Source of the DNA: Candidatus Omnitrophota bacterium
Lineage (GTDB): Bacteria; Omnitrophota; Gorgyraeia; Gygaellales; Profunditerraquicolaceae
NCBI GenBank assembly: GCA_028715415.1
Contig: JAQURX010000002.1
Location: 119,144-183,143 of the forward strand
Direction: 5' to 3'
DNA length: 64,000 bases
The notes beneath the pieces are model-generated. The model was not told where the DNA came from and made no database searches. It saw nothing but the letters and a program-made list of their open reading frames with translations. Position numbers and translations under genes: made by a program. This document shows, in pieces, positions 27,001 to 64,000 of this stretch (position 1 is the stretch's first letter; every line of letters starts with the position of its first letter).

Positions 27001-30000
27001 TAAGAGGTATGGCTGAGGGTGTAGATTTAGGAGAAGATGGCACAGGCAAGGTATTGGGCCTTGCTGGCGAGATATCCGGTTTATTTGAAGTAGTAATTAA
27101 AAGAGGAAGCACTTTAGAGAAAATAGCTTTAGGAGAACTAGAACAGATAAATAGGATAGTTTCTGATAAAACCGGAGTTGTTAAAGAATTTGACGCAGTT
27201 TCAAACAATACAGTTTATGAATTTAAATTTCATCTTTCTCTACGCAAGCTTTATCAACAGGTAATTGGAATTGATTCATGGCGGACACCTCATCTTGAAG
27301 TGCTTACGGATGTTAGGGAATTCAGTGGGGTACGAAATCTGGTTTATTTTGGAGAAACAGACGGCGGCAATGTTATTAAGGCTTTAAAAGAATTTATCCG
27401 AAACAATCCTGAAGTTTTACCACAATTTAATCTTACCGAAACTGGAATTTCAGTTAAATTAAATCTTGAACAGGTAAAAGAATTTCTTTTTTCCGATTCT
27501 ATAATCATGTTAGCAGGGGAAGAAGAATACCAGGGAAGATTTGCAGGATCTTTTGTTGATTATAAACGCCATCATGAATATACAGAAAAGCTTATTAGCA
27601 GAAAAATTAAGCAACTAAGAGGAGAAAAGTTTGACGTTATTATCGCAGTAGGCAATGTTAAACCGAAAGATTTAGAGCAGATTAAGGAAATGTCCAGAAC
27701 TAGACAACAAGAAGCTAAGCCAATAGATTCAAATGTGCTCATTAATAATTCTTATATAGCTATTCCAGTCGATACTCTGGCTAGTCCTTGTGGAGTTAAT
27801 GGCCCTATTTCTAATACAGAGTTCTCTGCGAATCTTCTATTCCAAGAAGTATATGGAGGTTCTTGCTATGAAAGCTCGCTTTGCTATAGCCAGACTCCTA
27901 TTGACCCTCAAATTATTACAGAAAACGCACAATTTATGTCAGATGCTAAGCTGACTTTTGAAGAAAAAGTAGATAAATTATTCGATCTTTTATGTACTGC
28001 ATTTATTCGGCCCGAATATGAGGCAGTTAAGCCTTTGCATCCGGGCTTGTGTTTCCGGTTAGCTGGATTTGTAGCTATATATTTTGCTGCAGCCGGCTAT
28101 TATGCATACAGGGTTAAGCAGAATGGACAAAACTTTGCAATTGTCTATGATATTGTTTCAAAGCGATATCATCTTATTGATTTTTCTGCAGCCCAATTTG
28201 TTTTAGGAGATGCCTTTGGGCATAATTATGGAGATAAATATAGGGCTTCTTATTTAGAATTAGCTACTGCCAATCCTTTTGTAGCCAATCGTCTCGGAAA
28301 ATATGCAAAAAATGGAAAGAGCAACTCTGTTTTATCCTGCTGCGCTCCTTTGGCTATGGCTTTTAGCAGCAACTTTGGTTTAACTAAAACAGTATTAGAA
28401 GCTGTAGGAATATTAGTTGCGGGGTTCATAGTATTATTTATTCTTTTCTACATATTCGCAGATAGTTCCATGAAAGAAGATCAAGCAGCAGGGAAGGGAA
28501 AACACCCGGATACTTATGAAAGAATTATTAATGTCTTAGATGGAATTGTTAATGCGATTCCCCGGGTTATTCAAGGTAAGGAAGGTATATCATTTTCTGA
28601 AACCTTAAAAGAAAAAGTTTGCATTGTCATTACACAAGAGAGAAATATGGCAAGCATTTTGGCAGCACGCAAAAAAATATGGCTTAAAGTGAATCCCGAA
28701 TTTGCCAGATATTTAAATAATAGCGCGCTTGCTTTTATGCTGGGACATGAGATGGCCGAAGCATGTGACTTGAATAGCACTTCGCGATATTTTCTCGATG
28801 TCGCAAGATCATTCTTGTGGCGTATTGCCAACTTGCTTATATTGTTTTCTCCTTTTGGTTTAATATTTATAGTTATTTCTCCCGGCTATTCTTCTGAGTT
28901 CTTTGCTATTTTGGTATTTAGTATAATACTCCGTCAAGCAATTAAATACTCCATGTATAAAAAAGAATTCAAGGCGGATAGTTTGGGGTATCTTTTCATG
29001 AAAAATGCCGGTTTTGATGCAAACGGAGCAAGAGATTTCTTTGAGGTTTATTCCAAATGTAAAATCAAATGGAATATTTATTCAATATTAGGCCTATTGC
29101 TCTTTTGGCATCATCCAACGATTAAAGCAAGGATCAAAAGCTTAGAAAGAAAACAAAAAATAGGCAGCTTAGTATTGCCGTCTTTGTTGTTTGTCTGCGC
29201 TCTTGGCTTGCTTTTCCTCAGCGGCTGCGGTACATCTCCGCATCATACAGCCTATACCATTCAAATTAATTCAATTATTGCTGGCCTTGGTTTATCGCAG
29301 TTAGGGTTTACTTCGCCATTTACGCATGTAGTTAATTTAGTCGGAATTGGATTATTATTGTCCGTATTTGCTTTTATGGTTTCGTCTAATTTACTTAGCA
29401 CTAGGGAGAGGAGTTTGGGAAGCGTAATTAACAGAGCTTTAAAGATAGGATTGCCTACAGATAGGGAAATTAGTGTTTTAGAGAGGCAACAAGAAGCCTC
29501 GATGCCGACATTGGATGATCTGTTGAGTGCTAAAGTAAGTAATCCGGTTGAAAGAACAGCATGGAAGAGAGCCTGTAATAAATTTATTGATGAAATGAAG
29601 CCTAGCAAAAAGAACAAGAGAGAATTTCGCGAGATCGTTGACGACTTTCCTTTTTATAAAAAACAGCTGTTATCGAGGCAAGTATTTATCAATAGATACC
29701 TTTCTTTGTTGATAAATGAAGCGAATGACTTAAAGTCGCTAAAGATAGCTTTTAGTCTTGTGGAGAATTATATGAGAAGTTTTAATGATTCAAATTATCT
29801 TAATTGTATGTTTGCTCATCAAGAATCTTGTAGCTTCATATTAGTTTTTCAGAGATTGGTTAATGCGGCTAAGAGTGCCGAGCAATTGAAAGTCTGGGCT
29901 TCTCTTGTTAATTATTTTATGAAGAAAATCTGCCGTTCGGAACATTTTGTTTTAAGCCTTTCAGTTTTAGCCAGGAAACTGAGAGATAAAGATATCAAAT

Positions 30001-33000
30001 TGCTTAGAGCTTACGCAGATCTAATTATGAGATACCTTAGGGAGAGCGATGATCCTATAAATAGTGTTCAGAGCCTTTTGGAGTTTCCCGAAGCTGTGCT
30101 TGATTTGGCAGTGTTAAATGCAGAGGTATTTTATGCGCCTGCAGAATTATGTTATCGCAGATACGATGAATTTACCGGTAGATATGTAAATGTTTTTGAT
30201 AAAGATGATTTTGAAAAAGAAGTAAAGTCAGGACGGGTAATAGATATAGGAGGGAAGTACTATTTTCCAATTAAAAATCCCTTCATTCCTTATGACAATG
30301 TTCATAATCGTGCCTTGCTTTATAATTCTCGAGGAGTGGACATCGTATACAAAGGAGCAGGTGCATCAGCAAGAATTGTAAAGCACGGATTAATTCTTAA
30401 CTTTAGCCATGACAAGAGCCCGCATATATTATATGGTGGGCTTCCTTCGTCCGAGGCAACCATAGATGTTGATGTTTCATTTAGAAAGGCTTACCAACAG
30501 CTTAAGGCTGAAGAAGACCCGGGGTTACTGCTTGCTGAAAGAAATGGCGCTCGTATCGATATGTATAGAAAACCGATAGCTATGGCAAGGCTTGAAGCAT
30601 TTCCTGTGGTTGTGCCGAATGGTAGCGTTAACGAAAAACAAGCCAAAGAATTATTAAAACATGCGGTTAATAAACCTGATTCACTTGGCCTACCGGAAAC
30701 TGTGAAGCTCATATTGGCGCAGCACTTCCTTAATTTTATAGGAATCCCTAAAGACAGCAAAGAAGAAAGGGATCCTACAGAATATATTTATAGTGTTCCG
30801 GTAAACCGGAGATATCAGGAAATGGATTCTCTGAAAGCTTACGGTCCGGTTTTTGAGTATTATGGTTATAAAGTTAAGTTTGATCGCAAGAAAGGAAGAA
30901 TCTATGCCAAGAACAAGCAAGGCAAGACTGTTGATTTCTCTTCGGTCAGGCGGCAAGTCGTAATTTCTGCTGCTGTCAGGTATGCCTTATTTTTGCGTAT
31001 TTTGCATAAGAAGTTTAATGGCTGCGGGTTTAATAAATATGGTTCGGTTTTTAGTGAGCATAACTGCAATCCTATCACAATATTTGATTATGATGTTATT
31101 AGATATAACGAATTAACCAAAGAAACCCGCGAAGGTGATTTAGGACAAGCAGAGGAGGCGTTGGCTAGGCTACATCTATTATATACAAGCGCTTTTCTTG
31201 GAGAAAAACGTGGTGATGATGAAGATGAATTATATGAGGATAAGTGGGCGAGCAAAAGAATTTTTGATGGAATATATAACGCTCCAATGGATAAAGGGAC
31301 CGTTTCTCAAGCTGAAGCTAAAAGTGCCCCCCTTACAGATAGGAGGAACACTTCTCCGAACGGCCCAAGAACCGGTCTCCGAACAGCTCAAGAACCGGTT
31401 TCTAAGGTTGTGGCTTTATTGCTTATGCTCGGGCTTTGCCTTGCGCAGTTAGGATTTACTTCGCCATTTACGCATATTCTTAATGTAACCGGTGTTGGCC
31501 TTATTATTCTTGGGCTAATTCTTGTTTTTTCCGGGCAATCTTTTGCGCAAAGCAATAGCAGTGCCTCATCCAATAGACGCCTTTTACAAGTCAGGAAGAT
31601 TGCAAATGTACTTAAAGATTTGAGATATCCGAAAGAAGGCATTAAAGATATTCTTCGTAAAATCACTCCTCTGGTTTCAGAAGTTAATCAGGCGAGGATT
31701 AATCTTAGTTGTGAAGATGATGGCCAACTTAAATCTGAGCTTAAGCGTTTGGTCGAGATTCTTAGATCCAATACCCATACAAGTTGGCTGCAATTAAACT
31801 TAATAAATGACTTAGTTGGTTTTGATATTTTTAAGGAGATAGATGGCTCAGTAGAGAAAGGTAATTCCGAAGAAGCAATGCGTAGAAAAGCGACTATGTT
31901 GGGGTGCGTGCCTCTTTCTCAGTTAATGTATGTAATTTTAAAATCATGCGGCTTGGAAGTATATGGAGCCATGACAATGAAACATGCATTTGCTTTAGTG
32001 CTTTTGGAAGATGGAGAAAAAGGCCTAGCAATTGACCTTCTTTTTGGCGTAGTAAGGAAAATTAATTTAAGTAAATATTATAACTACAATAAGGATACCA
32101 GAAGTTATATCCTTAAGCCTAAATTTGTGATGGCGGAAGAGGAAATTGAGGAGTTTAGAAAGAGTTTGGGGGAGGGTGAAATTAATCCTGAGAAATTATC
32201 TTCCTCTGAAAAAATAGGCTTTTTAAATTTAGTATGCCCATATTTCCAATTAACGAATTCTACCGGTTTATCTGCCGCTATTTATACTAACTCTGGGAAT
32301 GTTACTATAAAGTATGGCCTTGAGAAAGTCCCCTTTCAATCAGGTGGTTATTCCAGAGGGCAAGAATGTTTTTGTTTTTATGAACTGGCAAAGAACCTTG
32401 ATTTAATAAACGCTTTTAATAATTACAATCGTGGGCTTGCGGCTATGCATTTTGAAGATATGGAAGTCGCCCTTGATGCTTTTCAGCTTGTAATAGATGC
32501 TTTTCCTTGTTTTGAACCTGCTGTCGAAGCCTTTGAAAGAGTAGAAGAAAAACTTCAAGTAGAAGAAAATCTTCGTAATGGCGGAGATTTCTTTTCAGCG
32601 ATGGATTTTAATTCTTTTTGGGGGAATAGCTGTATTATTTCCCCGTATTTAATTTTATCTTCTTTAGGATTCAGATGTGGGATTGGTTCGCAGCAAACAG
32701 GCATTATCGAATCTCTCTGGTCAACGGGTCCGCTGTGGATGGTTGCACTAATGGTATTTTCTTTTGTTACATATCTATTCTTTGCAGGATCTTCGGGTGC
32801 ATTAACGAGGAACAATGCTCGTTCAAACGAAGAATCATTTGGCGTCATATTGGGATACGACTATGAGCGGTCAGTTATAAAGCCGTTATCACGCCAGTTG
32901 CAACAGCTTGCCCAAAATAAACTTAAACCTGTATTGACTATTAATGAAAAAGGATTAGCCGTAGCTGATTGGGTAAGCGATAAATTTAGAGAATACATTG

Positions 33001-57000: not shown

Positions 57001-60000
57001 TTCCTGATGGGCAGGTTGTACGTGGAATTGGGTATGATAAAGATGATAATTGCGCAAGCTATAAAGTAGTTCCGGGTTTAGAAGGCATTGGTAATAAATT
57101 AATTAGATGCTGGTATTGCAGGAACAATTGTAATGGGGATAAGAGAATTAATTGTGTTGGTAGAAAAGATTATTTTGCCGCACAGGGGTTATCTTGTGCA
57201 GGAGGGTTTGCTGCGGAAGATGTGCGTGATTTGCATTGGGCGAAAAGGGTGAATAATCTACCGTTAAATTATGATGCAAGAAAAGAAGCGGTGTTGAAGG
57301 AAATTTACTCAAATACTAAAGTTGTTTCTGATCCTAATACTGTCGCTTATGTAAGGGAAAGAATCAAAGCGGCAAAAGAAAAAGTCCGCAATCATCCTCA
57401 ATGCGATGGAAGAATTATTGTTCAGCTTCAGCTTATGGAAGAATGCCCAATCCGCGCCGGCCCAATGCCTAATTTGCATGCTGTTGTTAATCGTGAACAC
57501 GAAACATCTTTCCAAAAAGCAATCTTCCTTGATACAACTGAAAGCCAATCCCTTCTTGATCCAGCCAACGAGTCCAAATTGCTAATCGGCCTTATACATG
57601 AAGCAAGAGCGCAGGCTTATCCGGCCAGCGCAGATGCGGAGAATGAAACCTTTGCCAGTATCTATTGTGGCGTTTCAATAGGAGATACAATTGAGGAGCT
57701 ATTTGATCATGATCTTTGGCTTTTGCATCGTGACGAAGATCAATATGAAAATATCCCCCCGCAATTCGGGCATCCCAAGACTTACCTTAGGGAATTATTA
57801 GGAAACTCTAAAGTCTGGGTTGATGTAGGGTGTGGCTTGGGGGTTGCTGCAGTAAAACGGGCGTTTTTTGAAAAGTATCCGCTAAAAGTTTATGCTGTTG
57901 ATATCGTTGATTGGGCAAAGAGGGTTGGGAAGATCAAAAAGTACTTAGCAGAGCAACACAGTTATCTTTGCCTTGAGGACTTTCTTGAGCTTCGCGGGAA
58001 AATGTTATCAAGCGGAAAGTTCTGTTTTATTGAGGATGATATGGCATCTGTTGTTTTGCCTGAGCCGCCGGATTTGGTTACAAATTTCTATGTATTGCAG
58101 TATATGCGCGATCCGTTTGCCGCGATAGTCAATATTTATAACCAGCTTGCATTATGGGGGAGGTTTGTTTTTGCGGTTGCTGTCCCTAAACGGGCAGGTG
58201 TTTTTAAACAATATGAATTACTATTTGATTACTTATACAATGAACACAGTGCGCTTGTTTTAAGATGGCATGACAATTCGTTGCCTGATGTTGAAACCTA
58301 TTTAGTTGAGATAAACAAAAATCAGCCAGGTACTGTCCGGAATATATTTGAACTAAATAATTCTCAAGAAGTTTTTGTTAGGCTTAGCGTCCGTGATGAG
58401 AAAAGGGTTATTATCCGAGTTCCAGCTTATGCTGGAAAATCAGTTGTTAGAGAAAGCGCATTTTTATGCCTTAACCCAGGCTTGTTGCTCGCAGCGTTCA
58501 GCGGGAGCGGATATGCTATTGGGCAGTCCTCGTTAATAATTTGTTTAGGCATAATTGTATTGGGGTATTTATTGCTAACTATTTGTTTCAGTGATGATGT
58601 TGTGAGATTGCCAGAACCAAATCCCAGTGCCTTTACTTTATGGTCAAATTTACTTATAAATAAAAATAAAAGAAGAGGGATGCTTTTATTCGGCAATAGC
58701 GGAAGCGGTAAATCATTGCTTACTGCGCTTATGCTTGGTTTTGATGAATTCGGCATAAGAGTAAATCCTCAGCCTCAATGGTTATTCGGAGGGGATGATG
58801 TAATTAAAGGTATTCCTTTAGGGAATAAGCTTTGGGCAGGTTATGATTATAAGAGCCCTGTAATAACTAGTTACGACCCCGCAATCCAAAAACGGCTTAA
58901 GGAATTAGGCTTTAGGGATCTTAGAAGAAGAAATTTAATATGGACTAATATATTCCCGGTTAACATGTTTGTACCGGTTAAACTCGCAGTTTATTTAAAT
59001 ATTACGGATAATGATAAAAAATTAACTCTTGCCCGCGAACAGCTTTTTGAGAAAATTATTGGAACAATCCAATATTCATCTTTACCTCAATGGTTTTTAA
59101 ATGCTTTCTCCGGAATAGAAATGTTGGAGGTGCCCATAGCAAGAAATCGCAGTATAAGAAATTATCCTCAGGCGGCTTTGCGGATAGAAGAAGCATGGCG
59201 CAGAAGTAGTTCAATAAAAAGACAAACTTCGACTTTATCGTGTTACGGTTTACTTTTGGCCACGATTCCTGTATTAACTAATGGTATCAGCCCTATTGTG
59301 CTGTTGTGTGGAGTGTCCGCCTTAGCAGTAATTACTCTTTGTATTGTTTCTTTATTTGCTCAATCAGGAGAACAGGCTTTACAGAATTTGAATCAGGATA
59401 ATAGAAAAGGAATCAACCTGGGAGATTCTGGGGTTGTAATTATTAATGATTCGGTAATAGAGGCAAAGGCAGAAGTGCGGAAAGCATTCAATATGCTTGG
59501 CGATCTATTAGATAAGAAATCCGAAAACAAGAAAGTTAAATTAACAGATCAATTGCTTCATAAGTTTTTTATCCGGGGGATTGAAGCTTTGTGGGCTTTT
59601 GATTTTTTCAAAGGGGATATTGTAAACCAAGAGGAAATCAAAAAGAGGATAGCTAAAGCTATTGTGGTAATTTATGAGTACAAAAGATTAATGGAGGCAT
59701 TTTGTGATTATGGTTCACAGTTAAGGAATTCCGACGCGGCAAATATGGAGTGGGGCAGGAATATGCTTGAATGTATTGATGCAGGAGTATTTGATGCGGA
59801 GTTTTTTGCTGGGTTTAATAATTTTGTTAATGTTCTTCAGGAAGCAGCGGGTAAATTGAGAGATTTTCTGCTTAATTCTTATGATCCTCATCGTGCAGCG
59901 TTGTCTCTTCGTCCTGTGATTAATACTGATATCAGGGCCTGCGGCTCTGATGAAGTTTATTGTAATGACGGAAGAATGACGAAGCCCGCTATTGCTAAAA

Positions 60001-63000
60001 CCATAGAGGTTTTAAAACTTGCTAAAAGGCGGGGTTTGATTGAAGAATCCAAGACGGATTTATTTGAGGGAAAAATAAAACTCTACCATGTTTTTAATAA
60101 CCTCAATCCGGGAGAGGATTTTTCTACAGTAAATTATCTTTGGCGTGAATCTCCAGCTAATTATTTGTTTGCAGTAGCTTTAAGAAATCCTGTAGAGGAC
60201 GAAAACGGTGGCAGCCTTCCTCCTGGGATTTACATTCCATTCGCTTTGTATTTTTGGCTGGCGTTCTGCAACTTTGATTTATTCAAGGAATTGCTTGGAT
60301 ATGAAGAGAAAAATTTCTTAGGCCAGAAAGTAAAAGCAAAGGATAGAAGGTCTATTGTAGACAGGTTAAGCGCCAAGCCGCAATTGACAAAACAACAAAG
60401 GCCGCTAGTCGTAGCAAACTTGCTTACTTATTGTTTATTGTATGAGAAAAAACTGGCATTGCTGCAGGATTTGCGTCCTGCTTTTAAAGAAGCTTATGAC
60501 AATCTAACAGCTAATCGTTTTAACACTGCTGAAATCCCGGAATTATTTAGCAGATTTTGCCTTGTTTCAGAAGATATTAACCATATATTTGGTTCATTTA
60601 TAGGGTTATGGCATACGGTTGAGGGGGTATTGTCTGAATTATATAGGGATGTCGATAAGCTCGATAACCAAGAAGAGTTGAAAGTTCTCCAAACTTTATT
60701 TGAGTTTTTGGACAAGAATACACTTTTCTGGCAGAAACCAATTTCTCCGATTATCATGACTTTGATGGATACAGTTTCGTCTTATAGCTATATTGACAGC
60801 GTAGATAAAGAAGGATTTCCTTTGATGTCAGAGGTAATTAAGAATATGAGTATATCGCGCTGGCTATACCAAAAGTTTGCAGCAATCAGGAAACAATTAG
60901 GGATTTCTATTCAAAAGTGCATAATCTTGTTTCCTTTTGCCGGGCTTTTGCTTTGTTTGGGCGACCTGCATCGCGCGAAGTGGGGGATGAAGCCTACTAA
61001 AGCCGAGATTGAATCTGATATCTCCGGATCAAGCAGTTTTACAAAAAATACATATTTCTTAAAGGTAGTTGAGGATGCAATTACATTAGCTGAATCAAAA
61101 GATAACCGTGTAGCAAGGACATTGAGGGCAATCAAGGATTCTATAGTAGTAAGGGCAGGGCCCTTTACCTATATATGGGGAACTTTCCGCAACAATACAC
61201 TCTACCTCGACCAAACATTACTAATTAACCCTTCCTTACGCGAAGAATTAGCCTTAACCCTTATCCATGAAGCAAGAAAGATTGCTTATCCTAAAGCCCA
61301 AGATGAAGAAAATGAGAATTTCGCAAGGCTCTGTTTCCGCGAAAGCAGCCATAAAATATCATTTACCTTAGATGAACTAGTTTCAATAATTCTAAACGAA
61401 TGTACAAACGGAAACTTTGCTTCTCTTTCTCTGTATTGGAGCCAAAAAACATACCAATACCAGGAATTTATTAAACATGCCTGCGCTATTAATACTGCGA
61501 TTAAGAAACTCATCTCCGAGTCAGTAACAGTAGATAAGGCTTTCCGGAAAGAATTTTTCAAAGCAGCAATCGCGACGAGAATTGATATGATTGAACATTA
61601 TATGGCACCTCTTTCCGATATGGGTCGGGATTTGATTCATGATATAAAGCAAAGGATGGATAAGTTTACAGAAGATTCTTGCTTGGATATCATTGCAAGT
61701 CTTATGAAGCCCGATCGAGAACTCTTTATCAAATTATTTAATGAGGAGAGGTTAAGGATTATTGGTTATCAACTATTTGCTCCAAAAGTTGTAGCTACCT
61801 GGGGTTGTTCTGAACAGTGCGACCATTGTGATGGCGCAAGCCTGTTCCGGGTAGATTGTTTCCCATATATCTGGCTTGAAGAAGCCCAAGAACGCGGCTA
61901 CCAGATTGACCATTACAAAAATGGGTATTTTAAAGATTACTATGATTTTGTTTATGATAAGGATGGGTCAAGTGTAGTCGCAAAGTTTGGTGCAAGCTTT
62001 GCTTATACCGCGCCAATTGAAGAAGGATCGGTAGCAGAGCGTGCTTTAGAAAACTTATGGTTAAGTTTTACTATTTATATCAGTCTTGCTCCGAGTGCAT
62101 TCTGGCGCAGGGTTGGAACTGAAAGATATATGGATGCATTGATTAATATGGAGAGGATATGCCTGAATGCAAAAAATAGTAATATTGCTTATAAATATAT
62201 TGCATATAGATTTTGCCGTTTAGATGATCCCCAGATGTATTTTGAGAATTTGTTTAAATGGGATAATATCGTAGAAGAATCAAGACAAGGGCAGCCTACT
62301 GAAATAAGTAATTGCGGGAGATACTGGCAGTTGGCTTCACTTGGAATATTGGATTTAACCCAGGCAAGTGGGTCGTTTGCTATTGAAAGAGAAGATACCG
62401 GCCGAATTTTTATTTTACCCGATGGCCAAGTTATTAGAGGATTGACTTGTGAAGACGATATCCATTTACGCCGCTATGAAACCGTTCCTTCTCTTGGCCC
62501 AATCAGCAAGAGGTCTATTAGGTGCTGGAATTGTCATTTTGATTGCCAAGGTAAGAATCAAGAAGGCTGTCCGGGAAGAAAGGCATATTTTACTGCACAT
62601 GGATTATCAGAAACAGGCGGGTTTAGTGTTTATTGCGGCATTCCTTTGCCTGCAATCCGGGTATTATTCAAGGCATTTTCGATAATTAGTGTTGTGTTGC
62701 TATCTTTATTCATTAAAGGCTGTGGTTATATCCCAGGAATTGTTAAAGATGTTTTTGCCCAACAATCCTATTGTTCTGATAATTCAAAATATATTGAAGA
62801 AAACACGCGTGTTATTGATAGAAATGGAATTTCAGTTAGATATTTTGACGCAGGTGATGCTTTGGAAACAATTTTATTGGTTCCGGGATTTGATGAAACT
62901 ATTGAAATATTTAGATGCAATGTTGAAGCTTTGGTCCAAGCAGGGTTTAGAGTAGTATGTTTTGACCTTCCGGGGTTTGGACAGACAGGTATCCCGGGTA

Positions 63001-64000
63001 ATTTTGATTTTTCAACTGCAGCATACGCCGGCTTTATTCACGATATGCTCAATGGATTAGATATCCAGGAAGTCTATCTAACCGGGCATTCCATGGGAGG
63101 AAAAATAGTACTTAAATTCTGCTTACTATATCCGGAAATGGTAAAGAGGGCTGTAGTAATTAGCTCGGTAGGTATTGTTTCAAAAGATTCTTGGCTTGAT
63201 TTTGCTATGGAGTTATTTCCTCAAACATTCGATAATCCTGTTAATGCGGCAATTTTAAATAGTGACGCTTTAGATCCTCTCAACGATGAAGAATTTGCTG
63301 CACTTTCAAATCTAAATATTCCATTTTCAATTCTCTGGGGTGAGGGAGATGTCATCGCCCAACCGTGGGAAGCAGCTGTTCTTTCCGAAAAACTTCATAA
63401 TTCATCTGTAACTATTTATGATGACGCCGGGCATCTTGTTACGACAGAAGAAAGTACAAATGTTAACAGCTTGCTAATTAAATTCTTCCAATTCAGCCTT
63501 GCTTTTGCTGCGGTTTTAGCCTTAGGAGGATGTACAGAAGGTTTAAAAATTGCATCTTTAGAAATTGATAATGTAATGGCAGGGAAAGAGATATTTTTAT
63601 TAGTAATAATCCTTTCATTTCTTGGCATTCTTAGTTTTTCTCGATCAAATTCAAATTTTCCTCAGGAAAAAAATTCAGTTAAAAAGTCAATCGAAGATTA
63701 TTCTGAAATCACATTGGATCAATTAATAGAAAGGATAATTAACGATTGCAAGAATGGAGATTTCAGGCTGCTTGAGCTTAATTGGGACCAGGTAATCTAT
63801 AGATATCAGGAATTTATTAAACATGCCTGCGCTATTAATACTGCGATTAAGAAACTCATCTCCGAGTCAGTAACAGTAGATAAGGCTTTCCGGAAAGAAT
63901 TTTTCAAAGCAGCAATCGCGACGAGAATTGATATGTTTGAGCATTATAAGGCTCCTCTTTCGAGATTTGGGATTGATGTGGTTAGGGATATAAAAGAGCG
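3..64000 (+). CDS. Giant multidomain ORF in frame 3, truncated by both window edges. More than 21,300 sense codons with no in-frame stop seen. Mosaic of enzymatic, regulatory and hydrophobic modules.
   Basis: I tiled the whole window into frame-3 triplets by hand and found no TAA/TAG/TGA. Independently indexed motifs at 438 (RILIVDD), 25506 ([11 protein letters not shown]), 28740, 31353, 37689 ([11 protein letters not shown]), 41277 (GFDGLWLDAA), 48021 and 63081 (GHSMGG) all start at positions divisible by 3. Codon usage is uniformly RNY-like with A/T-rich third positions. The ORF track has no frame-3 ORF, consistent with one ORF above its length cap. Confidence 0.85.
110..119 (+). promoter_or_regulatory. 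Shine-Dalgarno-like TAAGGAGGTG upstream of ATG 125
   Basis: AGGAGG at 112-117 with a 7-nt spacer to the ATG. AAG GAG GTG is an unusual codon choice for this AT-rich gene if it is read in frame 3. Confidence 0.45.
125..364 (+). CDS. 79-aa small ORF in frame 2, nested in or overlapping the giant frame. It has a canonical RBS, and its product is a small mixed-composition protein of unknown function.
   Basis: It is listed in the ORF track. TAAGGAGGTG lies at 110-119, 5-7 nt before ATG 125. Frame 2 here has about 30% G at the first codon position and a balanced amino-acid composition (W, H, Y, D, E, K). The frame-3 reading of the same stretch is low-complexity S/L/I/K with many NCG and NAG codons that are atypical of the giant gene. 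Frame-2 stops are at 110-112 (TAA) and 362-364 (TAG). Confidence 0.4.
   Translation: MYKAEQLEFTRVMPRKDGIFVDAKYNNWHYEFHFLIQQDGKVKGETSTGSWLELSKEFSSLVVKRARFVIANQAKLIHL
359..365 (+). promoter_or_regulatory. CUU-UAG-C site with the geometry of the prfB-type +1 frameshift. It joins the end of the small frame-2 ORF to the giant frame-3 ORF.
   Basis: The frame-2 codons are CTT(359-361) TAG(362-364). The frame-3 codons are TTT(360-362) AGC(363-365). There is no SD-like stimulator immediately upstream, so this could be coincidence. Confidence 0.2.
429..800 (+). other. Receiver (REC, CheY-like) domain 1 within the giant ORF
   Basis: PRLRILIVDDQ (beta1 with DD pair), AVITDKEMPGISG (phospho-acceptor Asp in an ITD context plus MPG), IILLATTKPKD (conserved T and K region). 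Confidence 0.7.
850..1480 (+). other. Polytopic hydrophobic region of about 4-5 predicted TM helices
   Basis: Long stretches with no charged residues: LSPVFLAMILDSIHSVISNHLFFGLSIVAMVIVADLG, FSFTLFSVSMVIGFVCV, FFIASSAITLGAVISQTI, IADIMLLASLLVLFIGFTVDII, SIFISLSAINCIGACF. Confidence 0.5.
5055..5260 (+). repeat. Paralogous protein module 'W.M.TRAPPL.A.L..EEILH...H..ID.Y', copy 1 of 3
   Basis: HWSMITRAPPLLAQLVVVEEILHYYFPGQNELVHSVIDDYIRVNLATSFHEAIQNAKQYGIHPVD. Compare the copies at 14060 and 15625. Confidence 0.6.
9060..9440 (+). other. Receiver (REC) domain 2, with a divergent acidic pocket
   Basis: LFVLAVDNEDWELMLLKRTLKG, NLVITDNNMPGMWGHDLAGKIREIAPNILIIMRSTEP...K. The Asp in the ITD context and the MPG motif are conserved, and DNED replaces DD. 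Confidence 0.6.
9684..9750 (+). other. Four-cysteine CxxC...CxxC zinc-ribbon-like motif
   Basis: NPCLSCITNMKCKAVDGEGQCGKCVG. Confidence 0.35.
14060..14270 (+). repeat. Paralogous 'TRAPPL/EEILH' module, copy 2
   Basis: SWAMLTRAPPLIALLTFAEEILHFVIDEDLEVHNAIDCYVANNLYDYFLSEIEKAKRKGINPHD. Confidence 0.6.
14530..15300 (+). other. TPR-repeat region of several tetratricopeptide repeats. A second TPR-like stretch follows at about 15880-16200.
   Basis: EEARKYIELDPYDPDGYEDLCRISLGLGDFDTVIAAADKIIFFNPDSGLGHSRKVQALRAKGEIKAALRAAVKFVNLFPKDSIGWSQLCDVYYDLGDMEGALSSAYEAISLDPSSPYGYGQL has the classic W/L-G-Y..A..-F..A..-P periodicity. Confidence 0.65.
15625..15830 (+). repeat. Paralogous 'TRAPPL/EEILH' module, copy 3
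   Basis: SWAMFGRVPRLIALYTLVEEILHYSKNKDKEVHDLVDDYIAENIYDDFLAAVKEAADNGIVAYD. Confidence 0.55.
17375..17480 (+). repeat. Hydrophobic hairpin motif 'SCHAW.VLALF ... E.LW(A/S)TGPLWVVV', copy 1. DNA core ctgggcaaccggaccgctgtgggtggtggt at 17441-17470.
   Basis: LSCHAWSVLALFVGSYQQTSVIEFLWATGPLWVVVALAAVLFLSMMNF. Confidence 0.6.
20055..20170 (+). repeat. Hydrophobic hairpin motif, copy 2 (ggaccgctgtgg at about 20115). A partial third 'SCHAWPVLALL' copy lies at about 20565-20650.
   Basis: LHCFASVPLLALLGPWSIGPLWIALGIFALIFVLQF. SILSCHAWPVLALLSFNSLWLAVALFAFLGVFYL. Confidence 0.55.
24990..25380 (+). other. Class-I SAM-dependent methyltransferase-like Rossmann module
   Basis: NLILDIGGAWPTAIKL (motif I-like), LVVILDIDPDKIELAK (acidic post-I), FIFIEGDVRALPIE (motif II-like), LLQDGGKFYLAG (motif III-like). 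Confidence 0.45.
25500..26410 (+). other. Complete thioredoxin-disulfide reductase (TrxB)-like FAD/NAD(P)H module with a CAVCD redox-active disulfide
   Basis: [30 protein letters not shown] (FAD GxGxxG). CAVCDG at 25893-25910. KKVVVIGGGNTGVEDALHLAKIASQVTLIV (NADPH GxGxxG/A). GIFAVGSV...GEGAAV at the C-terminus. Confidence 0.8.
29285..29360 (+). repeat. Repeat 'AQLGFTSPFTH..N..G.GL', copy 1. The DNA core is near-identical to 31446-31478.
   Basis: GLGLSQLGFTSPFTHVVNLVGIGLLLSVF. The core cagttagg(g/a)tttacttcgccatttacgcat is shared. Confidence 0.6.
31440..31520 (+). repeat. Repeat 'AQLGFTSPFTH', copy 2
   Basis: LGLCLAQLGFTSPFTHILNVTGVGLIILGLILVF. Confidence 0.6.
32700..32770 (+). repeat. Hydrophobic 'ESLWSTGPLW' motif copy (DNA ggtccgctgtgg)
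   Basis: GIIESLWSTGPLWMVALMVFSFVTYLFF. Confidence 0.5.
34650..34740 (+). other. Acidic and Pro-rich low-complexity linker
   Basis: DDGDDRKPEPVAPDPEPVGEDAPVGD, immediately followed by the hydrophobic hairpin at 34740-34900. Confidence 0.5.
34740..34900 (+). repeat. Hydrophobic hairpin motif copy (LACHTLPVVLLLGLLGLGGCG ... ESCWATGTLWVVFVMLF) containing an internal lipobox-like LGGC
   Basis: Diverged copy of the CHAW/TGPLW pair. Its DNA tgggcgacggggacgttgtgggttgtt resembles the 17441 core. Confidence 0.5.
35150..35330 (+). other. HprK-C-like P-loop module 1 (GESTSGKST Walker A followed by DD)
   Basis: LWANLIIDRETTRGLLIFGESTSGKSTITSLMLGLNPKSKDVGLSNRWILGVDDLAQGF. Compare the HPr-kinase C-terminal pattern G.LI.G.SG.GKSE.AL.L...G..LV.DD. 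Confidence 0.45.
35790..35870 (+). repeat. Hydrophobic 'ESLWSTGPLWVVV' motif copy. DNA ctggtcaaccggaccgctgtgggtggtggt at 35815-35844 matches 17441-17470 at 29 of 30 positions.
   Basis: LIESLWSTGPLWVVVILLICTLFF. Confidence 0.6.
36790..37965 (+). other. GT4-family (GT-B fold) glycosyltransferase module
   Basis: KPTVVHIMSNLGRGGAERNTLNLVAGL at the N-terminal half. [48 protein letters not shown] is the E-x7-E retaining GT-B signature. Confidence 0.75.
40555..40770 (+). repeat. Paralogous module 'IRAGP..TYIW.T.RNN..Y.D...L...L...LIHEARKIAYP', copy 1
   Basis: IVIRAGPGLTYIWATYRNNIFYIDKDLLSNQYLRFELLVTLIHEARKIAYPEAKDHENEVFAQEC. Confidence 0.55.
40840..42250 (+). other. GH13 (alpha-amylase family) TIM-barrel catalytic module with conserved regions I-IV apparently intact
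   Basis: Region I is GIKVIFPAILNHVS. Region II is GFDGLWLDAASAL at 41277 (nucleophile Asp). Region III is RVMAECYDVFD (acid/base Glu). Region IV is RRHFARVNHDKLE (NHD). Confidence 0.7.
44870..45265 (+). other. GHKL-type ATPase (HATPase_c, histidine-kinase or anti-sigma Ser-kinase-like) module
   Basis: N-box ELGCNIHKYGDKG. G1 box IVARDVGKGIGD. G2 box IGEGNGLRTI. Confidence 0.6.
47310..49390 (+). repeat. Tandem array of about nine XRE/Cro-C1-type helix-turn-helix domains. Each is about 75 aa (about 228 nt), joined by a conserved 'N(P/E)PDW..FG...GYG.RIR' linker.
   Basis: YGDRLRKVRNAQKLTKQEVSFLTGGKVDAGRIKRWE. YGMRIRDLREKNMLKSCELAEVVGVGDDTICDWEFERKIPLDENITKLSNVL. KNPPDWDNFGITKGYGKRIRRARLAKGLAQCELGRSIGLSVSRVAAWEKEEIECPTHEALERFAKALDVPIEYL. 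QNPPDWKTFGIINGYGRRIRKARMALRMSGEELG... Confidence 0.75.
51130..51560 (+). other. Possible NAD(P)-binding Rossmann module (D-2-hydroxyacid-dehydrogenase-like GxGxxG...AR)
   Basis: IMIDGFGRTGQSVARSIIHDLPEEVRIVAVR. Confidence 0.35.
52330..52600 (+). other. HEAT/PBS-lyase-like alpha-solenoid repeats
   Basis: DDFHVREDSAHALGFLLLEEKNKQARWVIAEALLHACSDRSEAVALWAHWAIS. Confidence 0.3.
55880..57250 (+). repeat. Radical-SAM-like module, copy 1: CX3CX2C plus a C-terminal Cys-rich (SPASM/twitch-like) segment
   Basis: ATWGCSTQCDHCY at 56385-56408. C-terminal CWYCRNNCNGDKRINCVGRKDYFAAQGLSCAGG. N-terminal ITLDQLTEKIINNCMNGDFRLLRLDW...QEFIKHAAAIN. Confidence 0.5.
57580..57670 (+). repeat. 'LIHEAR' module, copy 2 (partial)
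   Basis: LLIGLIHEARAQAYPASADAENETFAS. Confidence 0.45.
57750..58230 (+). other. Class-I SAM-dependent methyltransferase module
   Basis: Motif I VWVDVGCGLGVAAV. Post-I VYAVDIVDWA. FCFIEDDMASVVLPEPPDLV. FYVLQYMRDPFAAIVNIYNQLALWGRFVFAV. Confidence 0.6.
58640..58810 (+). other. HprK-C-like P-loop module 2 (paralog of the module at 35150)
   Basis: LWSNLLINKNKRRGMLLFGNSGSGKSLLTALMLGFDEFGIRVNPQPQWLFGGDDVIKG. Confidence 0.45.
61150..61340 (+). repeat. 'IRAGP...LIHEARKIAYP' module, copy 3
   Basis: IVVRAGPFTYIWGTFRNNTLYLDQTLLINPSLREELALTLIHEARKIAYPKAQDEENENFARLCF. Confidence 0.55.
61340..62660 (+). repeat. Radical-SAM-like module, copy 2
   Basis: ATWGCSEQCDHCDG at 61806-61829. C-terminal CWNCHFDCQGKNQEGCPGRKAYFTAHGLSETGG. 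It is collinear with copy 1 throughout. Confidence 0.5.
61461..61589 (+). repeat. 129-bp segment identical to 63807-63935, an intragenic direct repeat about 2.35 kb apart
   Basis: caggaatttattaaacatgcctgcgctattaatactgcgattaagaaactcatctccgag...gcgacgagaattgatatg is the same in both places. The copy-1 equivalent at about 56020-56160 is only about two-thirds identical. Confidence 0.9.
62790..63490 (+). other. Alpha/beta-hydrolase-fold module (GHSMGG nucleophile elbow), bracketed by lipobox-like hydrophobic segments
   Basis: ILLVPGFDETIEIFRCNVEALVQAGFRVVCFDLPGFGQTG, VYLTGHSMGGKIVLKFCLLYPEMVKRAVVISSVG, GEGDVIA...DDAGHLVTTEE (catalytic His region). Confidence 0.75.
63640..64000 (+). repeat. Radical-SAM-like module, copy 3 (N-terminal part only, running off the window). 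Its N-terminus resembles copy 1 and its middle is DNA-identical to copy 2.
   Basis: FSRSNSNFPQEKNSVKKSIEDYSEITLDQLIERIINDCKNGDFRLLELNWDQVIYRYQEFIKHACAINTAIKKLI... Confidence 0.55.
63807..63935 (+). repeat. Second copy of the 129-bp identical repeat (partner at 61461-61589)
   Basis: Character-by-character comparison of the two stretches. Confidence 0.9.

Follow-up and report, generated by a model that had tools for sequence, protein, structure and literature searches.

Gly-Cys-capped helices as possible membrane anchors, mostly hairpins, in a giant Omnitrophota open reading frame

Seven hydrophobic helices of a giant open reading frame (ORF) from a Candidatus Omnitrophota bacterium end in a Gly-Cys cap that is non-random, directional and lipobox-mimicking. 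We consider the chances about even that these helices are membrane anchors, mostly hairpins, and not relics of lipoprotein genes, because the cap is unconserved within a duplicated hairpin and no module with lipoprotein relatives was found. The caps, of the form [L/I]-x-G-C, would then mark the C-terminal ends of helices that appear to run from the cytoplasm to the outside, presumably with no processing at the cap, and some of the anchor helices probably descend from signals for export or anchoring at the N-termini of genes that were captured.

The window, the whole 64,000-nucleotide stretch analysed here, lies entirely inside one giant gene, which is longer than 21,332 codons. A six-frame stop count showed that frame +3 is open over all 64,000 nt (21,332 codons, 0 stops) and that each of the five other frames contains 691-2286 stops; only two internal ORFs of at least 150 aa occur in the window, both antisense. 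Hydropathy analysis placed 56-67 hydrophobic helix cores across the 21,332-aa chain. Pfam domains of about 12 families are tiled along its entire length, and most are cytoplasm-type: receiver, phosphorylase, Pyr_redox_2, methyltransferases, GT4 and an HTH_3 array. As a single ORF of more than 10,000 aa with many transmembrane (TM) helices and tiled enzyme domains, it is of the membrane-tethered, multi-enzyme giant type described in Omnitrophota (West-Roberts et al. 2023, 10.1101/2023.11.21.568195; 2026 preprint, 10.64898/2026.06.07.730766). It shares with the published giants its length, with tens of thousands of codons in one ORF, dozens of TM helices, and glycosyltransferase group 1, response-regulator receiver, methyltransferase and peptidase domains. 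These giants are described predominantly as "TM-only, membrane-anchored cytoplasmic-domain" (10.64898/2026.06.07.730766). No close relative or orthologue of the ORF itself was found in the sequence collections searched.

The six peptides that a first-pass annotation of this DNA had flagged are present exactly where it placed them, all in frame +3 of the single ORF. Their Cys residues are 9742 (nt 29226), 11598 (34794), 12215 (36645), 18052 (54156), 20907 (62721) and 21177 (63531), referred to here as motifs 1 to 6 (Table 1); a seventh site, ...ARISPIIIICIAGC, with Cys3897 (nt 11691), lies outside the range of that annotation. The residue at -1 is Gly at 7/7 sites, never Ala or Ser. Two LSGC sites and IAGC satisfy a strict lipobox, [LVI]-[ASTVI]-[GAS]-C; the three LGGC sites match only the permissive PROSITE PS51257-type pattern, and FIKGC, which is not a canonical lipobox because of its Lys at -2, fails. 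The hydrophobic stretch said to precede each Cys is present as uncharged runs of 15-22 aa at the flagged sites (11-22 aa over all seven), except that the run before FIKGC is broken by the same Lys. K/R residues occur in the 15 aa preceding the uncharged region at five of the seven sites (motif 2 has none and motif 5 is interrupted). In their basic n-region, uncharged h-region, [L/I]-[S/A/G]-G-C ending and probable N-in/C-out orientation with Cys at the outer face, the sites resemble lipoprotein (Sec/SPII) signal peptides. Unlike these, in which the Cys lies within about residues 15-35 of the precursor, they are all internal to a stop-free ORF and thousands of residues away from an N-terminus; a return helix comes after five of them, Gly always occupies -1, Gly or Lys occupies -2 in four sites, and no lipoprotein homologues were found.

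Table 1. Features of the window discussed in the text, with residue numbers of the translated chain and nucleotide positions.
Feature	Residues (aa)	Position (nt)	Strand	Remarks
Single giant ORF		3..63998	+	open at both window ends; holds all features below
Signal peptidase II (Peptidase_A8 / LspA-like) domain	314-442	942..1328	+	Pfam profile
Seventh x-G-C site		11649..11765	+	helix ...ISPIIIICIAGC (Cys3897), 11-aa loop, return helix aa 3905-3921
Hairpin copy	5783-5860	17349..17582	+	LSCHAWSVLALFVGS...LWATGPLWVV...; no Cys at helix-1 end; 5.3e-32
Hairpin copy	6681-6743	20043..20231	+	ends FTQTN; no Cys at helix-1 end; 2.4e-20
Peptidase_M48 (HtpX/Ste24 family) domain	9570-9716	28710..29150	+	directly upstream of motif 1
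Motif 1		29160..29387	+	n-region RIKSLERKQK, 22-aa uncharged run to LSGC (Cys9742)
Hairpin copy	10872-10947	32616..32843	+	3e-24
Motif 2 (duplicated hairpin copy)	11574-11656	34722..34970	+	LGLGGC (Cys11598) ends helix 1; i-Evalue 1.6e-23
Hairpin copy	11910-11981	35730..35945	+	2e-27
Motif 3		36558..36776	+	n-region MMAGKLIKMFLR, helix to LYLGGC (Cys12215), return helix aa 12231-12258
GT4 glycosyltransferase module	12280-12632	36840..37898	+	Glycos_transf_1 2e-45, Glyco_transf_4 1e-17
Motif 4		54042..54158	+	helix aa 18014-18029, basic loop DLLKKIR, 15-aa helix to ILSGC (Cys18052)
Soluble-looking module behind motif 4 (~238 aa)	18053-18290	54159..54872	+	
Module X copy 1	18642-19071	55926..57215	+	helix ending SNFSQSN precedes
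Module X copy 2	20455-20876	61365..62630	+	no helix precedes
Motif 5		62664..62723	+	single helix to FIKGC (Cys20907), between module X copy 2 and hydrolase
Alpha/beta-hydrolase module (Pfam match)	20956-21089	62868..63269	+	Abhydrolase_1, 1.9e-28
Motif 6 (hairpin copy)		63474..63650	+	helix to LALGGC (Cys21177), 19-aa loop, helix 2 to ...LSFSRSN; i-Evalue 2.1e-17
Module X copy 3	21237 onward	63711..63998	+	cut by window end

We compared the frequency of the cap with mirror and shuffled controls. A permissive PROSITE-type pattern was no commoner than in the controls, with 7 forward matches compared with 6 for the mirror and 5-7 for the shuffles, and a "full signal peptide" definition gave 3 observed against 1.2-2.2 expected. 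Sharper tests separated the sites from the controls: a lipobox directly after a strongly hydrophobic 12-mer was observed 6 times against 0.4-0.8 in local shuffles (mirror 1), and a second sharp test gave 5 against 0.06-0.19; in both, 0/1000 shuffles reached the observed count. A statistic that is not tuned to any lipobox pattern and covers all 307 Cys of the 21,332 residues agrees, with Gly at -1 in 7/15 Cys directly after a hydrophobic run versus 22/292 elsewhere (Fisher p=1.2e-4; mirror 1/9). DNA identity among the sites is only 33-56%; they are therefore not one DNA repeat and are independent at the DNA level. That about 60 helices and 307 Cys simply yield a handful of lipobox look-alikes fits the two broad definitions, but the sharp tests, the Gly statistic with its null mirror and the independence of the sites disfavour it, and we regard chance as a highly improbable explanation.

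The architecture around the sites points to hairpins. At 5/7 sites a second hydrophobic helix lies 11-37 aa after the Cys, in place of an exported mature domain; soluble modules stand directly behind the Cys only at Cys18052 and Cys20907, so the proposal that each motif precedes a new module needs qualifying. At motif 1, a 35-aa K/R-free loop leads to a return helix at aa 9779-9795 (K+R 6 upstream, 0 downstream); the "LGLSQLGFTSPFTH + helix" element on the downstream side is paralogous to one at aa 10481. The M48 domain upstream of this motif scores 29.6 bits when excised (cut-off 20.3), with the metal motif HEMAE, not HExxH. The motif 3 loop is 15 aa and acidic (K+R 3 upstream, 0 downstream), and the GT4 fold starts about 12 aa after its return helix, not after Cys12215. 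At Cys3897, K+R is 3 upstream and 1 downstream, with a best KD15 of 2.07 at +11. Motif 2 continues into a W-A-T-G-T-L-W helix after Cys11598 and has no basic n-region. Motif 4, the most canonical site, carries Cys18052 on the second helix of its pair, and the next helices after its module are at aa 18299 and 18363; the hydrolase fold begins about 30 aa after motif 5.

In 14 isolated helix pairs, K+R per residue drops from 0.146 upstream of the pair to 0.069 in the loop and rises again to 0.154 downstream (background 0.123), and over the seven sites K+R totals 17 upstream versus 6 downstream (p=0.035). Since loops are K/R-poor and flanks K/R-rich, the module that follows, such as GT4, probably stays cytoplasmic in this topology, which we derived from Kyte-Doolittle windows and charge counts and not from a trained predictor. 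In the mechanism that we propose, insertion would be co-translational, by a presumed SRP/Sec/YidC route: helix 1 would act as an internal signal-anchor and helix 2 as a return (stop-transfer) helix, and at 5/7 sites the chain would come back, making a hairpin of two helices whose outer loop is short and poor in K/R. Such hairpins would hold cytoplasm-type modules (GT4, the methyltransferases, the HTH array and receiver domains) at the inner membrane and would not export them, whereas Cys18052 and Cys20907 would end single outward helices with soluble modules behind them. The rule that these motifs predict which modules face outward fails: hairpins keep the chain on the same side, and three helices, an odd number, separate two copies (2 and 3) of the same module X. 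Helix or signal-like motif counts alone cannot tell which modules face outward. The odd number also means that at least one "helix" is not membrane-spanning or that our model is locally wrong. A further point against the model is the shortness of helix 1, no more than 10-13 aa, in several copies of the hairpin.

Motifs 2 and 6 are copies of a hairpin element of 60-75 aa that is duplicated within the ORF; six copies are clear and three weaker. The other copies lack a Cys at the G-C position, with VGS, LGP, GIGS, PLS or SFNS aligned there; the paralogue at aa 18565-18645 likewise has none at the position aligned to motif 6. Because Cys-free copies exist, these two motifs do not each stand for a lipoprotein gene of their own. 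Neither the element nor its F-S-Q-S-N tail nor the G-C cap turned up in five other giants or in the collections searched, a difference between this ORF and the published ones.

The first-pass annotation had read the motifs as vestigial signal peptides of once-independent lipoprotein genes, fused in frame and now serving only as internal anchors. The modular mosaic that it described is real, and some modules have free-standing relatives with N-terminal targeting helices, but no lipoprotein ancestry emerged for any of them. Module X has stand-alone Omnitrophota homologues of 530-563 aa with type I signal peptides and exists as a secreted family of its own in this phylum; one such member, P0040, has a possible lipobox, IIAC, by eye. 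The only relatives of this module that the searches detected, ten loci, are mostly from Omnitrophota (7 Omnitrophota/Omnitrophica, 2 Planctomycetia, 1 Desulfobacteraceae), and five of the loci lie inside other giant ORFs, where module X is joined without any helix. An N-terminal hydrophobic anchor sits where the FIKGC helix does in 11/38 free-standing hydrolase homologues, but a lipobox occurs in 0/38, a comparison that the annotation had itself named as a refuting test. The nearest solved relatives of the GT4 module are BshA, GlgM, MshA, PimA/B, GlgA and WaaG, which are cytoplasmic enzymes using nucleotide-sugar or sugar-phosphate donors, and a return helix separates GT4 from its Cys. Behind ILSGC, the aa 18053-18290 module gave no detectable homologues and no Pfam match. 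Inherited signal peptides would give directional enrichment, no part of the n-, h- and lipobox series is missing from motifs 1, 3 and 4, and motif 3 starts with Met-Met and is the only site with in-frame ATG codons nearby. Shine-Dalgarno matches are absent near all seven sites, and there are no start-codon remnants; the test is weak because the stand-alone genes also have no obvious one. An unselected Cys should moreover decay in fast-evolving paralogues such as those of this ORF, which are 33-47% identical. Together with the duplicated hairpins and the return helix after five sites, these observations make fusion of lipoprotein genes an unlikely origin.

The second helices raise a different question, namely whether they are the true export signals, of SPase I type and taken from captured secreted proteins. 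The second helix would then export the next module, perhaps with cleavage, and the Cys-bearing helix 1 would be a mere stop-transfer. Their tails, F-[SA]/Q-[ST]-N, have S, A or T at -1 in 5/5 sites and an acceptable -3 in 3-4/5. The pattern helix + F[SAT][QR][ST][NG] has 5 matches, 5/5 of them directly after helices, against 0.02-0.09 expected (reached by 0/500 shuffles; mirror 0). In 2/3 module X copies the helix, which for copy 3 belongs to the motif 6 hairpin, occupies the position of the stand-alone homologues' N-terminal type I signal peptide. The signal peptides of free-standing Omnitrophota proteins have similar ends, with cuts LFA/QN, VFS/QE and SFA/DD, and Gln at +1 recalls the Bacteroidetes Q-rule (PMC5837995). 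Against this, the loop would be outside and the tail inside according to the charge bias, so that the second helix runs N-out/C-in, opposite to a signal peptide; GT4 and a methyltransferase come after such helices or are on the same side as module X; and the remaining module X copy, like those in five other giants, has no helix. We therefore consider type I export by these helices very unlikely.

The same ORF contains a Peptidase_A8 domain. Excised, it scores 29.3 bits (cut-off 25, E 1.2e-6) over profile positions 1-139 of 142 as the only family match; within a 5,000-aa chunk it scores 20.7 bits. It has four hydrophobic helices by hydropathy and lies between cytoplasm-type domains, a receiver (aa 147-254) and, further downstream, a phosphorylase (aa 1216-1488). 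In a block-wise manual alignment, D416 (VTDWI) and D429 (NIAD) fall on the catalytic dyad D118/D136 of S. aureus LspA. Using a published list of conserved LspA residues (PMC6952399), we found 8/14 kept (equivalents of D21, K25, D109, V116, D118, N133, A135 and D136); N52/G54 of the beta-cradle, G102 and R110 are missing, N106 is Gln and F132 is Thr. The domain thus resembles LspA (5DIR, P. aeruginosa; 6RYO, S. aureus) in clearing Pfam's gathering threshold along the whole profile and in its dyad and four hydrophobic segments. LspA is a 150-190-aa protein, whereas this domain is embedded in a giant ORF, and the dyad spacing is 13 residues here versus 18 in LspA. A 3-sequence LspA HMM returned only an envelope at aa 311-450 with a non-significant score; phmmer found no relative of the segment, NCBIfam and PDB sequence searches gave no match, and a single-sequence AlphaFold model was uninformative (pLDDT 53). 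"Signal-peptidase-II" content was reported independently in a published Omnitrophota giant of 147,155 aa.

This domain bears on the idea that the lipoboxes are functional: the outward helices would present [L/I]-x-G-C outside, Lgt would lipidate the Cys, and the A8 domain of the ORF or the cell's own Lsp would cut before it, so that the polypeptide would end up in pieces about 270 to 5,800 aa long, anchored by lipid and helices. The enrichment and direction of the cap, the N-in charge bias and uncharged runs within the range of about 7-22 aa for lipoprotein signal peptides all agree with it, as do the in-cis A8 domain above its cut-off with both dyad residues, the flanking cytoplasm-type domains, which match the N-in/C-in topology that LspA requires, and the independent report in another giant. 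The cleavage sites of giant proteins are acknowledged to be an open question (10.1101/2023.11.21.568195). Neither that study nor the 2026 preprint mentions lipoboxes or lipoproteins, and the preprint's pipeline suppresses internal signal-peptide calls as chunking artefacts (10.64898/2026.06.07.730766). On the other side, paralogous copies of the hairpin do not conserve the Cys, the invariant Gly at -1 and the Gly (three sites) or Lys (one) at -2 are atypical, and the A8 domain is missing 6/14 conserved residues, including the beta-cradle N-x-G and Arg110, with neither a phmmer relative nor an informative structure model. Pfam detected no Lgt, Lnt or SPase I domain within the window, five other giant ORFs have nothing comparable, and an internal lipobox is without precedent in the literature searched. 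In E. coli CyoA, a lipobox Cys is closely followed by TM helices, behind a signal peptide that is N-terminal; a return helix alone thus does not exclude lipoprotein processing. On balance we consider functional lipoboxes rather unlikely.

A mechanistic likeness, not one of ancestry, exists with viral polyproteins (pestivirus, bunyavirus), in which alternating internal signal-like and return helices at module boundaries also set topology and possibly processing. Those act at the eukaryotic ER with signal peptidase I and demonstrated cleavage, whereas cleavage of this ORF is purely hypothetical. Further observations speak against the anchor reading that we prefer: a plain anchor role does not explain the enrichment and direction of a lipobox-like cap; the A8 domain, above its Pfam cut-off with the dyad kept, is in the same ORF; and module X is cytoplasmic in our model, yet its stand-alone homologues are exported with cleavable type I signal peptides.

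Giant Omnitrophota ORFs are already documented; to these the window adds seven [L/I]-x-G-C caps at outward helix ends as candidate sites, a Peptidase_A8 domain with an intact dyad as a candidate protease in cis, and a reproducible G-C statistic applicable to the published catalogue of 916 long proteins. There is a small but real chance that the giant is a polyprotein that processes itself, for which no bacterial counterpart has been described, with six or seven internal lipoboxes lipidated by Lgt and cut by the in-cis signal peptidase II or by Lsp. If so, it would release membrane-anchored enzyme fragments of about 0.3-5.8 kaa, which would settle both the place and the manner of cleavage in the giant proteins of Omnitrophota. 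Even without processing, the module boundaries would mostly be two-helix hairpins with outer mini-loops, which would explain how cytoplasm-type enzymes occur in a chain with dozens of helices.

Frame +3 of the window is free of stop codons across all 64,000 nt (21,332 codons) and open at both window ends, and the remaining five frames contain 691-2286 stops. The lipobox-like motifs flagged by the first-pass annotation are therefore internal features of one giant ORF. We rejected separate genes in an altered genetic code, given that 0 of the 21,332 codons is a stop; we know of no genetic code that removes all three stops. The only internal ORFs of at least 150 aa, both antisense to the giant ORF and one of them opposite the glycosyltransferase (GT4) module, are probably spurious. 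GC skew is positive in all 2-kb bins of the window (0.08-0.33, at 36-41% GC), a pattern consistent with one long coding strand. A Pfam scan of the translated chain returned the domains listed in the table, and hydropathy places 56-67 helix cores along it. The ORF resembles giant ORFs of Omnitrophota, which are likewise rich in helices and combine multiple enzymes; the reports describing them mention neither lipoboxes nor lipoproteins (10.1101/2023.11.21.568195; 10.64898/2026.06.07.730766). Internal paralogues at 27-52% identity (aa 145-255 vs 3025-3132, including a second receiver-like domain; 4579-4761 vs 5107-5284; 11717-11896 vs 19546-19743; and, three-way, 13455-13580 vs 20321-20444 vs 19104-19219) show that it grew partly through internal duplication. 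No close relatives of the ORF were detected in a genome scan with the GT4 region or a metagenome scan with aa 18030-18700. The Cro/C1-type HTH_3 tandem array (five Pfam stretches, about nine repeat units by self-blast) represents DNA-binding-type content within a membrane-tethered chain. Peptidase_M48 (HtpX/Ste24 family; 29.6 bits, cut-off 20.3) has HEMAE, not HExxH, as its metal-binding motif and stops 26 aa short of the motif 1 LSGC.

Features of the giant ORF, in chain (aa) and window (nt) coordinates
Feature	aa	Window nt	Detail
Receiver	147-254		Pfam
Peptidase_A8	314-442	942-1328	Pfam
Glycogen-phosphorylase-like	1216-1488		Pfam
TPR	about 4890-5070		Pfam
Pyr_redox_2	8502-8788		Pfam
Peptidase_M48	9570-9716	28710-29150	Pfam
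GT4	12280-12632		Pfam
Alpha-amylase	13617-13849		Pfam
HTH_3 array	about 15758-16470	about 47274-49412	Pfam
Methyltransferase	19263-19393		Pfam
Alpha/beta hydrolase	20956-21089		Pfam
Seventh Gly-Cys site	Cys3897		IAGC; new
Motif 1	Cys9742		LSGC
Motif 2	Cys11598		LGGC
Motif 3	Cys12215		LGGC
Motif 4	Cys18052		LSGC
Motif 5	Cys20907		IKGC
Motif 6	Cys21177		LGGC
Clear hairpin copy	from 5783	17349-17582	
Clear hairpin copy	from 6681	20043-20231	
Clear hairpin copy	from 10872	32616-32843	
Clear hairpin copy	from 11574	34722-34970	
Clear hairpin copy	from 11910	35730-35945	
Clear hairpin copy	from 21166	63498-63704	
Weaker hairpin copies	6849, 8277, 18603		
F-[SAT]-[QR]-[ST]-[NG] tails	6722, 10514, 18626, 19785, 21212	20166, 31542, 55878, 59355, 63636	
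Pre-helix Cys	5791, 6689, 6856, 8278, 9446, 10877, 11581, 5417, 19747, 20878		
Module X copy 1	18642-19071	55926-57215	family loci L001-L014
Module X copy 2	20455-20876	61365-62630	
Module X copy 3	from 21237	63711-63998	cut by window end
Antisense ORF		16835-17359 (-)	
Antisense ORF		37493-38008 (-)	opposite GT4

All six peptides that the first-pass annotation had read as lipobox-like (motifs 1-6) are present at the coordinates it gave, and a seventh Gly-Cys site lies beyond the range it covered. The permissive PROSITE lipobox core is no commoner than in the controls, with 7 forward matches beside 6 in the reversed sequence and 5-7 in local shuffles, but this test is too loose, and the reading of no enrichment was overturned by sharper, mirror-controlled tests. 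In tests that were partly designed post hoc, lipoboxes directly behind a strongly hydrophobic 12-mer number 6 against 0.4-0.8 expected (0 of 1000 shuffles reach 6; mirror 1), and L[ASG][GA]C occurs at five sites, all behind helices, against 0.06-0.19 expected (mirror 0). Glycine at -1, a statistic that like the mirror control was not tuned to the pattern, precedes 7 of the 15 cysteines directly behind a hydrophobic run vs 22 of 292 other cysteines (p=1.2e-4 by Fisher's test), and the mirror control shows no such effect (1 of 9). Chance occurrence of the Gly-Cys sites, which the permissive counts alone would allow, is extremely improbable beside these figures. DNA identity among the seven sites is only 33-56%, so they are not one repeat, and a DNA-level repeat as their source was rejected.

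Topology was derived from hydropathy windows and charge counts. Lysine and arginine at the seven sites total 17 upstream vs 6 downstream (p=0.035), which suggests that the helices lie in the membrane as signal peptides do and expose the Cys on the outer side. Behind five of the seven, the chain enters another strongly hydrophobic helix within 11-37 aa, forming a hairpin whose first helix carries the Gly-Cys cap. Across 14 isolated helix pairs, lysine plus arginine per residue falls from 0.146 upstream to 0.069 in the loops and rises again to 0.154 downstream (background 0.123); by the positive-inside rule, the loops are predicted to lie outside and both flanks in the cytoplasm. This arrangement fits the cytoplasm-type domain content and the position of GT4, which starts about 12 aa behind the return helix, as well as the nearest solved relatives of this module, BshA, GlgM, MshA, PimA/B, GlgA and WaaG, which are cytoplasmic enzymes with nucleotide-sugar or sugar-phosphate donors. 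Our preferred reading, with moderate confidence, is that the motifs cap anchor helices, which in most cases form part of hairpins tethering cytoplasmic modules; the Gly-Cys ending may serve as a structural cap or have been inherited. Motif 4 is an exception, as its Cys sits on the later helix of a pair with a basic linking loop (DLLKKIR), and the roughly 238 aa directly behind it look soluble. At motif 5, a lone helix precedes the hydrolase fold by about 30 aa. C-terminal sorting signals of the PEP-CTERM or MYXO-CTERM type were rejected as the origin of helix 1, since the loops lack a basic cluster.

The further proposal that the motifs predict outward-facing modules does not hold. Three hydrophobic helices (aa 20876-21237; nt 62630-63711) separate copies 2 and 3 of module X, a module present three times in the window, and this odd number would put the two copies on opposite membrane sides unless one "helix" is non-spanning. 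At least one "helix" therefore probably does not cross the membrane, and the odd count makes the motifs unusable as a simple guide. Copy 1 falls on the same side as the SAM methyltransferase, although stand-alone module X is exported.

Chain self-blastp followed by an iterated HMM revealed a 60-75-aa two-helix element that is internally duplicated, with six clear and three weaker copies; a metagenome scan with the hairpin alignment detected no relatives. Two copies contain motifs 2 and 6. In the others, the position aligned to the Gly-Cys cap reads VGS, LGP, GIGS, PLS or SFNS, and the motif 6 paralogue lacks a Cys at this point. Conservation is highest in the second helix (L-W-S-T-G-P-L-W-V-V) and in the tail F-[SAT]-[QR]-[ST]-[NG], which occurs five times in the chain, each time directly behind a helix (expected 0.02-0.09; 0 of 500 shuffles reach 5; mirror 0). 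Type I signal peptides of stand-alone Omnitrophota proteins have a similar c-region and +1 Gln (LFA|QN, VFS|QE), and the Gln of the tail brings to mind the Bacteroidetes "Q-rule". Despite this likeness, it is very unlikely that the helix-2 tails are internal type I signal peptidase (SPase I) signals. Of 13 hairpin-type elements, 10 have a separate cysteine 2-6 residues ahead of helix 1 (LSCHAW, LHCFAS, LACHTLP, SCIISP, LSCCAP and others), and this residue is better conserved than the Gly-Cys cap.

Outside the flagged coordinates, yet directly relevant to the lipobox-like motifs, lies a Peptidase_A8 (signal peptidase II, LspA) domain. It scores 20.7 bits inside a 5,000-aa chunk and 29.3 bits (E 1.2e-6) when excised, against a Pfam cut-off of 25; the excised match, the only one to any family, spans profile positions 1-139 of 142. 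In a block-wise manual alignment it keeps 8 of the 14 conserved LspA residues (PMC6952399), including both catalytic aspartates (D416, D429), and lacks the beta-cradle N-x-G and Arg110. The segment had no match in PDB phmmer or NCBIfam and none in an exhaustive phmmer search of 1.84 billion representatives; its single-sequence AlphaFold model has a pLDDT of 53, and a 3-sequence LspA HMM found the correct location at a non-significant score. Signal-peptidase-II content was independently listed in a 147,155-aa giant (10.64898/2026.06.07.730766). Scans of excised helix clusters found no Lgt, Lnt or SPase I domain in the window. Functional internal lipoboxes processed by Lgt and Lsp would account for the Gly-Cys enrichment, the helix orientation and the A8 domain in cis; however, the Cys is not conserved among the hairpin copies, and such sites are without precedent in the literature searched, where the term "internal lipobox" does not occur. 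We consider this explanation unlikely.

The first-pass annotation proposed that formerly independent lipoprotein genes were fused in-frame, leaving vestigial signal peptides as internal anchors. Free-standing homologues of the hydrolase module number 38, all of them distant (no more than 29% identity across most of the module). Of these, 11 carry a plain N-terminal hydrophobic anchor at the place taken by the FIKGC helix, and the other 27 carry no signal; none has a lipobox. The module behind ILSGC (motif 4) yielded no homologue. The family of module X, about 430 aa in length, is uncharacterised and without a Pfam match. Its sequence includes an invariant W-G-C-S-x-Q-C-D-H-C (CX3CX2C) and, at the C-terminal end, a cluster of cysteines; the AlphaFold model (pTM 0.81) matches nothing in the PDB significantly. 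The stand-alone secreted homologues of module X, mostly from Omnitrophota, are 530-563 aa long with classical type I signal peptides (...SFA|DD, ...SLA|SD, ...LFA|QN). Their genes lie in housekeeping neighbourhoods beside a PhoH/PIN gene, and we rejected the idea of an "unfused operon" counterpart to the ORF. Two of the three internal copies have helix 2 plus F-S-(Q/R)-S-N in place of the signal peptide, and the third lacks a helix. Reference genomes yielded five further giant ORFs (L006-L009, L012; the longest at least 7,104 aa) in which module X has no helix ahead and, in four or more of them, is attached through Ser/Pro-rich linkers. These ORFs are helix-poor (20 helices in 21.5 kaa) and show neither lipobox excess nor F-x-Q-x-N tails. 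Vestigial start codons or Shine-Dalgarno sites were uninformative as fusion remnants because the stand-alone genes also lack an obvious Shine-Dalgarno site. With the lipobox-free hydrolase homologues and type I module X proteins, a lipoprotein origin of the modules is not supported, and vestigial-lipoprotein fusion as proposed is distinctly unlikely. Its gene-capture component stands: the comparisons with homologues and other giant ORFs give good support to the idea that giant ORFs have captured ordinary genes, and it is plausible that the ORF in the window retained their N-terminal targeting helices.
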